From: Microbotryum violaceum
Taxonomy: Eukaryota
Length of the DNA: 64,000 bases
Assembly (NCBI GenBank): GCA_001244265.2
Contig: CDLV01000015.1
Coordinates: 372,001 to 436,000, forward strand
Reading direction: 5' to 3'
Shown here piece after piece: positions 16,179 to 60,399 of this stretch (its first letter is position 1; the number at the start of each line of letters is the position of its first letter). The position numbers and the translations under genes were made by a program. The notes under the pieces were generated by a model, which was not told the DNA's origin, ran no database searches, and saw only the letters and a list, made by a program, of their open reading frames with translations.

Positions 16179-19722
<3,544 letters not shown>

Positions 19723-20281: not shown

Positions 20282-21425
20282 GATGCAGGGGCCAGTGGTA
20301 ACCCGGTGCTTTGCTGTGGGTCACGGTTTTGGAGCCAGAAGTACCAACCTTGATAACTTAGGCGTCAAAGAAAAACTCTTCAGAGTATCATTCTGGAACA
20401 CCACCGCTTTTAGCACTTTCCGATACGTGGCTCACTCTTGCAAAGGCTCCTCGTCACTCGCCGGCCGGCCCTAGTAGGACTAGTAGCTAGGTATGGAGAC
20501 GACCCGACAGTGGACAACCACAGCTATATCGAGGTCGAGTGTTCCGATTGAGTAGAGAACTTTCTTGATCCAAATGAGCTTGCTCTCATTCGTCCCGTAT
20601 CGCTGCGTATCCCGTACGGAAGCCCAACCGCCGTGTTCCAGTGTCCCGAGGCCAACGAGAGAAGACGACACAGATTGCGAATGCAAGACGTTGTTTCGGA
20701 GCAAGGTGAGGGACATCTGAATTCACCATTATGAGTAGGACTACGTGATGAAAAGGAAACAAAAAAACCCAAGAATGATTCAGAGGACGCACCGGCGGGC
20801 CCGCCGCCCCGGGCGCCGGCGCCGTCCTCTCGCGGCGGACTCTACCCCCCTCACAACTAGCAACTATCGAACGCGCAGCAGATGGCTCCTGTGATCAGTC
20901 CTGCTGCGAGTCCTGCTGCCCCATCTTCTATTGCGCCTTTAGCGGCTTCGCACGCACGCAATAGGCGTAGTTGTTGTCTGTTGAACGGATTGTTTTCCGG
21001 AAACTCGTCAGTTCACGCACTCGAATGCAAATTGCGCAGCGCCCCGTGTTAGACTCAAGCAACGCACCGCAGTAGTTGTACTCAAAGCATTCATTGTATA
21101 TGATAAAGGCTTGTTGGGGATTGCTGAGAACGTGATGAACAGAAGAAGGGGTCAGCTCATGTTTCGTTGAATGGCTTTGTCGATGTGCGCACGGAAGGCG
21201 GGGAAGGATGAGGTCGATGAGGCTTTCACCGCGCTGGCGTCGGCCGTCAATAGGAGTAAGAGAGCAAAGTAACTTACCCGCTACCCAGGTCGTTTTCGCT
21301 GCAAGTGAAAGCAAACTCTCCAAACTTGGAAGTGCAGGGGTAGCAGCCTTGGACCTTGAAGGGAACCTTTTGGGCGATGACGGGATCTATTTGCCAGCGT
21401 TTGGCGTCACAAAGCCTCCGCTAAA

Positions 21426-21682
21426 TGTCACAGTTATTGGTTAAGAATCTGAAGAGTTTTCTACTACGATTAGGTTTTATTTCATTATTCTAATTCTTAT
21501 TTGCTAAAAGGAAGACATTATCACCTCACAAATCTTGCCCTGGCCTTACAATCTATTAGCTTGTTTAGATTGGTCTGCGCCTGAGTGACACTTTTCTCCT
21601 TAGTCTTACTCCGTTCGCTCTCGCAACGGTTCTGACATAAGTGTCCTCAGTGCGAGATACATAGGATCCCAAATCCATCTTA
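21426..21682 (+). repeat. 5' LTR
   Basis: Starts TGTCACAGTTATTGG; direct repeat of 23170-23488; followed immediately by PBS. Confidence 0.9.
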
Positions 21683-21686
21683 GGTT

Positions 21687-22826
21687 ACGAGCCTATTCGC
21701 TGCTACCGACCTGCCTCACAGCAAGGTGGACAAGCTCCACAACTCCTTCGTCAAACTCAAGGACGAGTCCAACTATGCGTCATTGCACAAGAAGATGACT
21801 TTGCTCTTTATGGGTCACAAGGTCATGGACATCGTCCTCGGTGAAGAGGTAAAACCGCTGTCACTGCCTCGCCCGCCTGCGACCGGTACTCCCGACGCTG
21901 CGGAGCTCGATGCATCGGCCGATCGCCAGAAGCAAATTGCAACCTGGACCGATCGCGATATTTGGTCGCAGAGTCACATCATGGCAACCCTCAGTCCCGA
22001 AATCGAAGGAATGGTCACGTACTGTGAAACATCGCACCAGATGTGGGACTTGCTCGAGAAGAAGTACAGGAAGCGCGGCCACAATGCTCTCTACAGCGGC
22101 CTCGTTCGCCTACTCTCGACCAAGTACCGTGACGGCGACAACATGGACGAGCACATCACCAAGCTTCTGACCTACTCGGCAGAGCTGATGAAGATCGGCA
22201 AACCCGTTCCGGACGAGTACCTCAATGTATTCATTCTGTTCTCGCTCCCGCCTAGTTGGTCCGTCGTCAACACGCGGTACGAACAAGTCGCCGCAATCGA
22301 TGAGAAAGTAACTGTTCGTCCATCGCTTGTGGTCGAGCACATCTAATCGGAAGCCCACCGTCGTGCTACAGCCAACATGCAACTCGTTCCCATCAAAGTC
22401 TCGAGCTCATCGAACGCCGGTGCGCTCTCCGCCAACGCCCTCAAACTGTGCGACTTCTGTAACAGGAAGGGACACAATGCAGACGAGTGTTACACCAACC
22501 CGAATGGTCAAGGCTATCGACCTCCTCAAGGCAAACAGTCAAGGAAGCGTGGCAAAGCCAAATCGGTCAAGCCCGCCCAGTCATCCAACCAAGAGGCTGT
22601 GGCATTCTCCGTGATGTCAGCTGGTCAATCCGCCAAGTCTAGATTCATTATCGACTCTGGCGCGTGGAAGAACCATACCGGCGATCGTACTCAATTGACG
22701 AACTTGATCGAGGATCCGTACGAAGCCAAAACCGCAAACGGCGAATGGGTCGTCTGTCCGGGACACGGTACGCTCTCTATCGAAACTGTTGGTGGTCGAA
22801 AACTCGAGGTAAAGAAGTTTCGATAG
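21687..22826 (+). pseudogene. Copia gag-protease with ACG in place of the start ATG and in-frame TAA at 22344
   Basis: ORFs 21726-22346 and 22377-22826 are in the same frame, separated by one stop. Confidence 0.85.
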
Positions 22827-22944
22827 AGAGCGTACCGTGTCCCGGACAGACGACCCATTCGCCGTTTGCGGTTTTGGCTTCGTACGGATCCTCGATCAAG
22901 TTCGTCAATTGAGTACGATCGCCGGTATGGTTCTTCCACGCGCC
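22659..22944. repeat. Perfect inverted repeat: 129-bp arms, 28-nt spacer
   Basis: 22659-22787 is the exact reverse complement of 22816-22944; mirrored ORFs 22664+ and 22691- share peptide text. Confidence 0.97.
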
Positions 22945-23169
22945 TCAAGATCGCCTACAACCCAGCTCACCACGCTCGCACCAAGCACTTCAATGTGGTT
23001 CATCACTTCGTTCGCAAGCGCGTCACCCTTGGTGACATCAAGCTGGTCTACTGCCCAACCGATTCAATGACGGCCGACGTTCTTACAAAGGGGCTCGGTC
23101 CGATCAAGTTCGCTGCGCACCGCAAAGCGATGGGAATGGTTCAACTTTCAAAGCTCTGAACCAGGGGGA

Positions 23170-23488
23170 TGTCACAGTTATTGGTTAAGAGTCTGAAGAG
23201 TTTTCTATTACAATTAGGTTTGATATCATTATTCTAATTCTTATTTGCTAAACGGAAGATATTATCACCTCACACAAATCTTGCCCTGGCCTTACAATCT
23301 ACTAGCTTGTTTAGATTGGTCTGCGCCTGAGTGACACTTTTCTCCTTAGTCTTACTCCGTTCGCTCTCGCAACGATTCTGACATAAGTGTCCTCAGGTGA
23401 GTTGTCATTACATATATTGCTCGCTCTCGCAACGGTTCTGACATAAGTGTCCTCAGTGCGAGATACATAGCGTCCCAAATCCTTCTTA
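23170..23488 (+). repeat. 3' LTR (60 nt extra relative to the 5' LTR)
   Basis: Preceded by a purine tract; contains a duplicated TCGCTCTCGCAACG...GTGTCCTCAG unit. Confidence 0.9.
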
Positions 23489-24678
23489 CTAATGACGTAG
23501 CTCAAACCTGGGTCGCAGTTCGAGGTGCGAACCCGCTTGTCGTCCACCCAGTCGGAAAGTTTGGTACTCACTTGCGTCTTCCTGGAAGTAGCCGGGAATG
23601 GGACAGCTGGCGACACACGCCGTTGAGGAGGTACCAGCCGGGCTTGCACGACTTTGCCAGGGTGGCAGTGCAGGTCACAGAGTTGTGCTGGATGCCGGAG
23701 TGCAAGTTCTCGGGCCGTCGTTGATGTAGTAGGAACTGTCGCAACTACTCCTGGGAACGCACACGACGTCGGACAGTCGCGCCCACCAGCCGGGGAAGCA
23801 AAGAGTGGCACGATTGTTGATGTCGCACTGCTTGGCTTGCGAGTCGAGTTCGAGGCAAGAGGCGCACACGAAAGGTCCCGGCTTGCCGTAGGTACCGAGG
23901 GGGCACTTGTCGGTGGTCACGCACTTGCCGGCGTTCATAAACAAGGCTTGTCCGTTGAGTGAAGGTGCGCAGAGGTTCGCGTTGTCGATGGCATCGCAAA
24001 GCAGAACTCCGGCGGGGCAAGACGTGCATGTGTTGTCGCCGTCATCGACGAACGTGCCTTGAGGGCAGTTGGGTCCGGTGTAGCAATCGCCTTGGAACAG
24101 GTAGAGTTGCTCGCCGGTAGCGGGAAGCTTACCGCTGTGAAAGGATCGGCACGCCAGCTAGTCAATGACCAGTCTCGCTCGAGAAAGGATACCTAGCACA
24201 ACTCACCACTTCGTAGCAGCCCCGAACCCATCGGCGGTGCAAGCGAGCTCTCCCTCGTCGCAGCTCACGCAGGCCTTGAGGTAGTCGTCGGGGTAGTAGG
24301 CGCCGATCTGTCCGCACTTGGGACCTTCGACGCAATCATTCGTCGGACTCATGTAAGTCTTTTGTCCGAGGGAGTTGACACCGCAGACGAGGGCAGTGCC
24401 GTCTCCATTACCGGTGCAGGCACGCTTCGACTGTCGAAAAGTCAATGTCGACGAATTTTCGGTTCTAGCTTTGTCGAGGAATATGAAAGAGTGTTGAACT
24501 GTGTCTTCATGTCACGCACACCATATTCGTCGGTTCCAACTAACAGGCACTAATCTGATCCCTGAATTCTCAAGTGCTGCGAGGCGCGCTTCGCATCCTC
24601 GAACTCTTTCTGCTTTCCTCCCACCCGACCGCACTCAAAGCCCACCTGATCTCGACCCAGCTTTTGGACCTACAAGCT

Positions 24679-54279: not shown

Positions 54280-54542
54280 AGGACCCCCGAAAGCCCAGTC
54301 TGAGGCGCGTAGGTAAAATCCGCCAAAATCCCGGATTTTGGACCTCATTTGTCCACCCTTTTTTGGTGTATTCGCCCAAAAATGTCCTTAGAATGTCCAG
54401 TCCATCTACGCTCGTCCACAATAGCTCTAGAGTTGCTTCAGATGCTCTACAACATCTCCAAAAATCGCGATTTTGGCTTTTCTAGGGCCAAAACATGTCC
54501 ACTCTTTACCTACGCGCCTCTGGCTGGGCTTTCGGGGGTCCT
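54280..54542 (+). mobile_element. MITE copy 1 (~38-bp TIRs, 8-bp TSD with one mismatch)
   Basis: TIR AGGACCCCCGAAAGCCCAG.CTGAGGCGCGTAGGTAAA at both ends; flanks TCCCAGCC / CCCCAGCC. Confidence 0.9.
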
Positions 54543-54720
54543 CCCCAGCCTCCGTCTGGCAGCTATTTGCCGCGCTCTCACTGCAGGACTGCTCTCGGAG
54601 CTCGGAAGCTTACCATACCCTCGCCATCTCGTGATGACGCAATACGACGTACGCAACGACGTTCTTGGAGATTTCCCGGCTTTCGTCCCCAAGAACCCAC
54701 GTTTGAGCGCGCCCTCAACA

Positions 54721-54985
54721 AGGACCCCCGAAAGCCCAGCCTGAGGCGCGTAGGTAAAGCGTGGACAAAATTTTGGCCCTAGAAAAGCCAAAATCGCGAT
54801 TTTTGGTGATGTTGTAGAGCATCTGAAGCAATTCTAGAGCTGTTGTTGGACGAGCGTAGATGGACTGGACATTCTAAGGACATTTTTGGGCGAATACACC
54901 AAAAAAGGGTGGACAAATGAGGTCTAAAATCCGGGATTTTGGCCGATTTTACCTACGCGCCTCAGGCTGGGCTTTCATGGGTCCT
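54721..54985 (-). mobile_element. MITE copy 2, inverted relative to copy 1 (exact 8-bp TSD CCTCAACA)
   Basis: Reverse complement aligns to 54280-54542 with roughly 14 differences; TSD at 54713-54720 and 54986-54993. Confidence 0.92.
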
Positions 54986-59174: not shown

Positions 59175-59828
59175 ATCAGCCACCCACAGTATTACAGTAT
59201 TAGAGGCGCATACGCACTTCTACCAGCTTCTACCCCGCTCCCACCGATCCGACTACGCACGTCATCACGCGTTCCCCTGGGTGTGGGTCCTGCTGTGGGA
59301 GCCTCCACAGCCCTCCACAACCGATGGAGCGTACGTATTCGGACATGCAGTTGCAATGGTACGACCTGACGAAGGGCGAGATACGTGTCTTTGTAGCGCT
59401 CGTAGGCCAGTCATCGCTTTTTCAGCTCGCCCGAATCCTGACCTGAATGTTCGGCCCCGGGCACTTCGACCCCGAGCGCTTGATCGTTCAAGAGCTGGTC
59501 CAGTTCTGTGTCGACCAACCGGGGTCTCTTGTCCGTTCGGATGACGAACACGGTCAGAGAGTTGACACAGAACTGGACTAGCTTTTGGACGAACGACCAA
59601 GCGCTCGGGGCCGACGTGCTCAGGGCCGAATACTCAAGCCATGCGATCGGGATTTGGGCGAGCAGAAAGAGCGATGACTGGCCTACGAGCGCTACAGAGA
59701 CACGTATCTCGCCGAATACGTACGCTCCATCGGTTGTGGAAGGCTGTGGAGGCCCCCCGACCCAGGGAAGCGCGTGGTGGGATCGGGGTAGAAGTACGTA
59801 TCCGCCTCTGATAATGTGGGTTGCTGAG
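59175..59828. repeat. Long imperfect fold-back inverted repeat
   Basis: Blocks such as CCACAACCGATGGAGCGTACGTATTCGG and TGTAGCGCTCGTAGGCCAGTCATCGCT recur as reverse complements at 59670-59750; centre near 59540. Confidence 0.88.
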
Positions 59829-60399
59829 GGCTGTTGAGGGCGTGCTCGGACATGGGTATTTAAGGACGAAGAGCCGCGATGATCTCCAAGAACGTCGTTG
59901 CTTCGGTATGTGTAGCCGCCAGTGCGCTCACCACCTCACAACTTCTTGTCAAGGATAGTTGGTTTCACCGTCCTCATCCGATTACAACATTTAAGTTGGT
60001 TCTTGGGATTGAGCCAACGTGCCTTCATTTGGCCCTTTGGTGTCTTTTCCCAGCTCTAATTGTCTTCTTAGTCCCTCTATTATTGCAGCGCTTCACCAGT
60101 TAGCGTTCCATGGGTGTACCTCTTAGTTTCTGACCACTCTGTTCTCGTCGCTGTCCACTGGACTGAGTCGTGGTCAACATCAGGTCAGCTCCTTTGGAAT
60201 TTTACTGCTCCGTTCTCGTCCCTGTTCACTGGACTGAGTCGTGGTCATCATCAGACAACAATCTGTAGAACTTCACCACCGCAGACAGGATCCGGGAAAG
60301 CTCAGCCCAGCACAGGTGGGCCGTCATGTAAGGCAGCTGTGTCTAACGCAACTAATGTGGCACCCAGTCTTCGAATTGCATCAATTCAAATTCCTTTAC

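Follow-up and report, generated by a model that had tools for sequence, protein, structure and literature searches.

A perfect 129-bp hairpin in an old copia remnant of Microbotryum violaceum, probably the scar of a recent deletion mended by snap-back synthesis

How does a long terminal repeat (LTR) retrotransposon come to carry a perfect inverted duplication of its own protease region at the place where its integrase and reverse transcriptase (RT) should be, and does such a structure act on the family from which it came? The question is raised by a copia element in a stretch of 64,000 nucleotides from Microbotryum violaceum (assembly GCA_001244265.2, contig CDLV01000015.1, positions 372,001 to 436,000 of the forward strand), hereafter called the window, in which position 1 is the first nucleotide. 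The original prediction, made from the letters alone, proposed that the locus could be a natural killer locus, whose hairpin RNA silences the parent family in a manner similar to that of Mu killer in maize. Here we consider in turn what the element consists of, where it was broken, when and how the hairpin might have formed, whether the hairpin might be an artefact, and whether it might silence its family.

The element is a copia remnant of 2,063 nt that comprises the LTRs, gag, the start of the protease and the tail of RNase H (Table 1), and the pieces of the gag, protease and RNase H reading frames share one frame. It has the paired LTRs, the target-site duplication and the copia-type gag of a Ty1/copia element; the full pol of that class, with integrase ahead of RT, is absent, and what is left of it is the protease start and 71 codons of RNase H. 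The protease region itself matched PF22936 weakly, at 22.2 bits and thus under the 27-bit cut-off. Repeat search recovered to the base the 129-bp inverted duplication with a 28-nt loop that had been predicted, and its arms (100% complementary) were confirmed by script as exact reverse complements of each other. Likewise, the proposed replacement of the integrase-RT region by an inverted copy of the protease region, followed by the RNase H tail, is borne out by repeat search, Pfam and comparison with relatives, with the addition that most of RNase H is gone too. The claim that both priming sites were retained stands for the polypurine-tract-like run and fails for the primer binding site (PBS), since a private change at 21688 falls within the PBS-like 11-mer, which we take to resemble the complement of the initiator-tRNA anticodon arm. 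No tRNA gene was found in a scan of the whole 64-kb window, no other copy of the element lies within the window, and Rfam gave no match on either strand of 21300–23600 at E-values up to 1.

Table 1. Coordinates of the features of the copia remnant, in positions of the window
Feature	Position	Strand	Remarks
Target-site duplication, left	21421–21425		CTAAA
5' LTR	21426–21682	+	257 nt; direct repeats, global alignment to the 3' LTR
PBS-like 11-mer GGTTACGAGCC	21683–21693	+	placed directly after the 5' LTR
gag reading frame	21684–22343	+	PF14223 Retrotran_gag_2, E 1.7e-21, 76.9 bits (cut-off 27 bits)
In-frame TAA	22344–22346	+	Q (CAA) in relatives; P0001–P0004 read HIQSEAQ
Native frame past the TAA to breakpoint 1	22347–22817	+	gag end, zinc knuckle, protease start
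Zinc knuckle CX2CX4HX4C, CDFCNRKGHNADEC	22449–22490	+	translation
Protease D-S-G motif	22653–22661	+	read directly in the sequence
Left arm	22659–22787	+	native orientation; starts exactly at the G codon of D-S-G
Loop	22788–22815	+	native protease sequence, 28 nt; its translation ETVGGRKLEVKK corresponds to ETAGGRKLEAKK in relatives
Right arm	22816–22944	-	reverse-complement copy of 22659–22787
C-terminal RNase H tail	22945–23159	+	71 codons plus TGA; 91% identical to the end of P0005
Polypurine-tract-like run ACCAGGGGGA	23160–23169	+	adjoins the 3' LTR; assigned by position only
3' LTR	23170–23488	+	319 nt; alignment to the 5' LTR
3' LTR rearrangement	23361–23456	+	36-nt copies 23361–23396 and 23421–23456 flank a 24-nt filler; 60 nt extra
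Target-site duplication, right	23489–23493		CTAAT; 4 of 5 positions match the left copy CTAAA

The RNA of 22600–23000 has a folding energy of −303.9 kcal/mol, compared to −124.0 ± 5.7 kcal/mol in 100 shuffled sequences (z = −31.6), none of which matched it, and the fold cannot be the product of chance. Among the 14 inverted pairs found in the 64-kb window, the hairpin is the sole perfect long inverted repeat. Other repeats of the window include two MITE-like units of ~263 nt at 54280–54985, each with terminal inverted repeats of 38 nt, which stand head-to-head, 178 nt apart and ~95% alike, and together make up a long imperfect hairpin of ~700 nt. A fold-back of ~460 nt at 59297–59757 has nested inverted arms that are 82–96% complementary, and close to it a segment of 70 nt (59832–59901) resembles, at 83%, a portion of the spacer that separates the MITE-like units (~54653–54720). 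In addition, a proline/glycine-type tandem repeat with a 21-nt period (CTCCTCCGCCACCG...) occurs in six copies at 19053–19280 and is probably coding.

The insertion was compared with public sequencing runs, of which 24 were listed; 20 of these contain at least part of the compared stretch, and 16 of the 20 contain half of its words or more (best share, 0.66). Logan contigs of four of the 24 runs, X1, X2, X12 and X18, were examined, the status of X18 as an RNA run being a guess only. The border between the 5' flank and the LTR is crossed with 0 differences by contigs of X1, X2 and X12, which represent three studies and two organism labels, and the border between the 3' LTR and the flank is crossed by contigs of X1 and X2 with 0 and 2 differences, respectively. 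The insertion itself is confirmed as real. An 885-nt contig of X18 (21890–22774) was considered as the locus under study and rejected, as its 31 differences mark it as another copy of the family. At the loose ends at 21425 and 23169, contigs of X18 and X2 join the LTR start to other upstream sequence (...CACTTCAAAGGGGTCGGTC), which suggests that the same LTR may also bound elements with another internal region.

Relatives of the element were sought with the gag-protease translation read through the stop, for which an X was placed. Four long protein relatives of this part were found, three from Microbotryum silenes-dioicae at 88–94% identity and a fourth at 73%, and the protein that matches the RNase H tail, P0005, is also from Microbotryum silenes-dioicae. 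These annotated relatives are all partial gene models of 668–955 amino acids, and in several of them internal gaps or scrambled segments are obvious. Since P0001, P0002 and P0005 carry PF00665 and PF07727, the hairpin copy is, as judged from its domains, a deletion derivative of a copia family rather than an autonomous member of one.

The relatives and the family contigs together place both breakpoints. The protease in P0001 goes on as ...KKVYYMPGMPVG, and family contigs of X2 and X18 depart from the window after 22817 to code for VYYMPGMPVG, the continuation found in P0001; because they leave there with the continuation of the relatives, the sequence up to 22817 is native. At breakpoint 2, family contigs from all four runs diverge before 22945, 22947 or 22948, where they code ...YEDNQAT, as at the end of P0005. 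P0005 extends from MPGMPVG, three residues past breakpoint 1, to the tail at its end; ~824 codons (2,472 nt) are thus absent from the copy, a figure that is approximate because the P0005 gene model may have gaps of its own. At joint 1, the AG at 22816–22817 fits both the native continuation and the right arm and constitutes a 2-nt overlap; after 22817 the sequence runs backwards, as the reverse complement, from 22785 to 22659, which makes the copied part 127–129 nt long by origin. Joint 2, at 22944|22945, is blunt with 0 shared bases. The structure is a deletion filled with an inverted, self-templated insertion of 127–129 nt. The 3' LTR has a second small duplication with filler (23361–23456), which shows that such rearrangement has affected the locus more than once.

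The copy itself has decayed. The earlier hand count of about 11 differences in ~257 LTR positions was accurate, since the alignment has 11 mismatches in 257 aligned positions (4.3%), together with a 2-nt indel and the 60-nt insertion in the 3' LTR. RIP-like hypermutation was considered as the source of these differences and rejected, since no more than 1 of the 11 falls in a TCG/CGA context and transversions account for 5. At 21687–21689 the gag start codon ATG has become ACG, so that the window reads TSLFAA where relatives begin MSLFAA; the C at 21688 is private, the family contigs having T at all of their depth (1274.2 of 1274.2 in X1 and 352.5 of 352.5 in X2). This start codon lies inside the PBS-like 11-mer, and the one T-to-C change hits both. 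A further private change relative to the family contigs, C to T at 22344, turns CAA into TAA. With LTRs that differ at 11 of 257 positions, a lost gag ATG and an in-frame TAA, the insertion is an old, dead copy.

The arms of the hairpin point to a different age. At the LTR rate 5.5 differences between them would be expected and 0 were found (P = 0.0035). The arms contain 17 CpG in 129 nt, compared to 7 in the 257-nt 5' LTR, and they should therefore decay faster than the LTRs, not slower; CpG transitions have been reported as frequent in Microbotryum transposons (PMC4469406). The proposal of a hairpin that arose after the insertion, or is undergoing homogenisation, thus holds statistically. 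Furthermore, three states of the arms, N, L and K (at 22701, 22706 and 22728), are derived, all four of the relatives P0001–P0004 having D, F and E there. They differ also from the family contigs and are present on both arms, so that the duplication copied a template that was already mutated. The element may have received these states from its source copy instead of gaining them once inserted, and the LTR rate may be an unfair clock for the arms because the 11 LTR differences include 5 transversions and several changes that only the 5' LTR carries. Homogenisation of the arms is a possible source of their identity; homogenisation through assembly polishing was also considered and is thought unlikely, since the LTRs stayed different. 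Taken together, a rearrangement much younger than the insertion is the dating that we favour from these comparisons.

We infer that the hairpin probably records a recent, post-insertion deletion that was mended by snap-back synthesis, and that it is a neutral scar and a latent template for hairpin RNA. In such a scheme, long after the insertion, a single rearrangement at the DNA level would have removed ~2.5 kb that held integrase, RT and the greater part of RNase H. A 3' end would have been left at 22817, by a stalled fork or by a break in the element, and this end might then have snapped back onto its own strand, where AG would pair with CT at 22786–22787 over 2 nt. The snapped-back end would have grown by ~127 nt with its own protease region as the template, and the extended end would have been ligated to the right break at 22945 without microhomology, giving a perfect palindrome with a stem of 129 bp and a loop of 28 nt. 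Either end joining with snap-back synthesis or a template switch during replication might have been the route.

Snap-back synthesis has been described as a source of inverted templated insertions at deletion joints in synthesis-dependent microhomology-mediated end joining (MMEJ), and the scars reported there resemble this locus in combining a deletion with an inverted insertion templated beside the break, with a tiny overlap on one side and an apparently blunt join on the other (PMC2943611, PMC5728401). The joint studied here holds such an inverted copy of adjacent sequence. Joint 1 has 2 nt of microhomology (AG) and joint 2 has none; as an overlap of 2 nt occurs by chance in 1 of 16 cases, it supports the priming step weakly. 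The copied tract of 127–129 nt differs from the short insertions of described snap-back scars, for which it is long, and this counts against the reading. So does the fact that Pol theta, the polymerase usually credited with snap-back insertions, is to our knowledge untypical of fungi.

Alternatively, the hairpin might have originated at reverse transcription, when a nascent cDNA primed itself and then switched template to RNase H, with the arms being kept identical afterwards by intramolecular gene conversion, by mismatch repair or by chance. Template switching is known from reverse transcriptases, and so are deletions accompanied by insertions where short overlaps occur; non-autonomous LTR elements with internal deletions are common. 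The two joints, one with an overlap of 2 nt and the other blunt, suit reverse transcription as well as they suit DNA repair. We nevertheless regard this origin as very unlikely. It would make the arms as old as the LTRs, against which their excess identity speaks despite their higher CpG content, and conversion between arms of 129 nt, although possible, is an extra assumption. Moreover, no second copy with the same joints was found in the window, the protein set or metagenome contigs, all of them weak searches. The frame across junction 2 (22827–23159), when compared at near length with a set of 5.8 billion proteins, gave one candidate and no significant match, and an exact search of metagenome contigs with the 166-nt stretch over both joints gave no match.

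The element resembles families of internally deleted, non-autonomous LTR retrotransposons in keeping LTRs, a PBS-like site, a polypurine-tract-like run and gag while the enzymatic core is gone; it differs in that such families are defined by amplification, whereas here there is one known copy, with its PBS and gag start mutated.

A young palindrome could also be no palindrome at all in the living genome. The locus might truly hold a full-length or simply deleted copia element, with the fold-back having come from chimeric molecules or from mis-assembly of a repeat. The hairpin joints are known from this assembly alone: among the matches listed for X1, X2, X12 and X18, no contig bridges 22817|22818 or 22944|22945, although holes in such cover prove nothing. 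Contigs that fit both arms were assigned to one arm, and the element is split into pieces of 145–450 nt, with 201 further pieces beyond those listed. The depth of the right-arm bin 22818–22918 was 6.94 in X1, 312.2 in X2, 1.68 in X12 and 0.97 in X18. An estimate of arm copy number from depth was dropped as ambiguous (reference-type 338.5 against single-copy 224–238 in X1, and 206.3 against 116–132 in X2).

The family is also multi-copy, its element bins having several-fold the depth of the flanks, and it is in such sequence that mis-joins occur. A perfect palindrome in an otherwise decayed element is the expected look of an artefact, and in-vitro polymerases yield snap-back chimeras with an equal short-overlap signature. 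On the other side, an artefact requires that two joints be false in a consensus otherwise colinear with the unique sequence to its left and right, in a 64-kb window without a single N. The arms have locus-specific states and the loop has two private changes relative to the relatives, so that the sequence is not a family consensus, and the assembly left the LTRs, whose 257-nt repeats stand 1.7 kb apart, unhomogenised. On balance, we consider an artefact unlikely, and a recent deletion mended by snap-back synthesis is the explanation that we carry forward.

The element lies antisense in an apparent GT..AG intron of a minus-strand host gene; this intron (23571–21387, minus strand) would measure 117 nt without the element and measures 2,185 nt with it. 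The putative host gene is Cys-rich and is read on the minus strand at 21275–21386 and 23572–24511, with a frame that continues across the element. This frame seems to shift near a GTGTGT run at ~23615–23625, so the gene may be degenerate or the model wrong, and Pfam gave sub-threshold matches only for the four flanking minus-strand frames. As candidate promoters, the 5' LTR, or transcription in antisense from the host gene, is conceivable. A transcript through 22659–22944 would, as modelled, fold into a perfect 129-bp stem that Dicer could cut. None of the 24 listed runs is on record as RNA containing the stretch.

On this basis it is possible to imagine a functional killer locus, in which the hairpin is transcribed and diced and the resulting siRNAs silence the parent copia family in trans, perhaps under selection. 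A perfect stem of 129 bp would be an ideal Dicer substrate, and the 5' LTR and the possible host-gene promoter could each drive transcription. The arms differ from most family contigs at no fewer than four positions (22687, 22701, 22706 and 22728), a handful, so that siRNAs from them would match the family; 85 more differing places of the compared stretch lie beyond those listed. For M. lychnidis-dioicae, RNAi machinery has been reported that comprises one Dicer, two Argonautes and one RdRP, all of them expressed (PMC4469406). The precedent would be Mu killer (PMC3440606), and the inverted duplication of part of the target transposon by which such loci are recognized is found in this element as well (129-nt arms, 100% complementary). 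The two are alike in that part of a transposon, duplicated in inverted orientation within its own sequence, might give hairpin RNA, and in possible transcription from a flanking gene, here one in whose apparent intron the element lies antisense.

Several points speak against such a function. Transcription and small RNAs of the hairpin are hypothetical, and no small-RNA study of Microbotryum was found among the titles and abstracts listed. The perfect arms indicate youth rather than long-term selection, since dsRNA function tolerates mismatches. Mu killer concerns the maize DNA transposon MuDR and makes a hairpin of ~4 kb, whereas the present locus is a fungal class I LTR element, known from sequence alone, with a 129-bp stem that is ~30-fold shorter (PMC3440606). 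In addition, there is perhaps little left to silence, because the relatives are partial and disrupted gene models and RIP-like hypermutation has been reported for these Microbotryum elements (PMC4469406, PMC5381629). A functional killer locus is in our judgement highly doubtful.

Transposon-derived hairpin loci and Mu killer-type loci are already known kinds of locus. The long perfect intramolecular stem of transposon sequence is a feature that this locus shares with transposon-derived hpRNA and endo-siRNA loci; those are defined by sequenced small RNAs, whereas the present one is known as DNA. Hairpin small-RNA loci derived from transposable elements have been discussed for fungi in an article in which the name Microbotryum has 0 occurrences (PMC9757828).

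The boldest reading of these comparisons would be that a very young copia hairpin, lying antisense in the intron of an expressed host gene, is diced and silences its own family, and would be a fungal counterpart of Mu killer. We regard this as a long shot. If it were true, the hairpin would have been caught at birth, before its arms could diverge, and the sloppy repair of a dead transposon would have produced a silencing trigger in a basidiomycete. A hairpin that is silent or an artefact would make the locus an ordinary rearranged repeat. Provided that the joints are real, the locus is a clean and datable case of a dead retrotransposon that became a perfect dsRNA template in what would have been one repair step, and its value lies in breakpoints mapped to the base and in an ancestral sequence known through relatives. 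Where a fungus possesses Dicer, Argonaute and RdRP, structures of this kind are thought to be the raw material from which transposon-silencing hairpin loci may arise.
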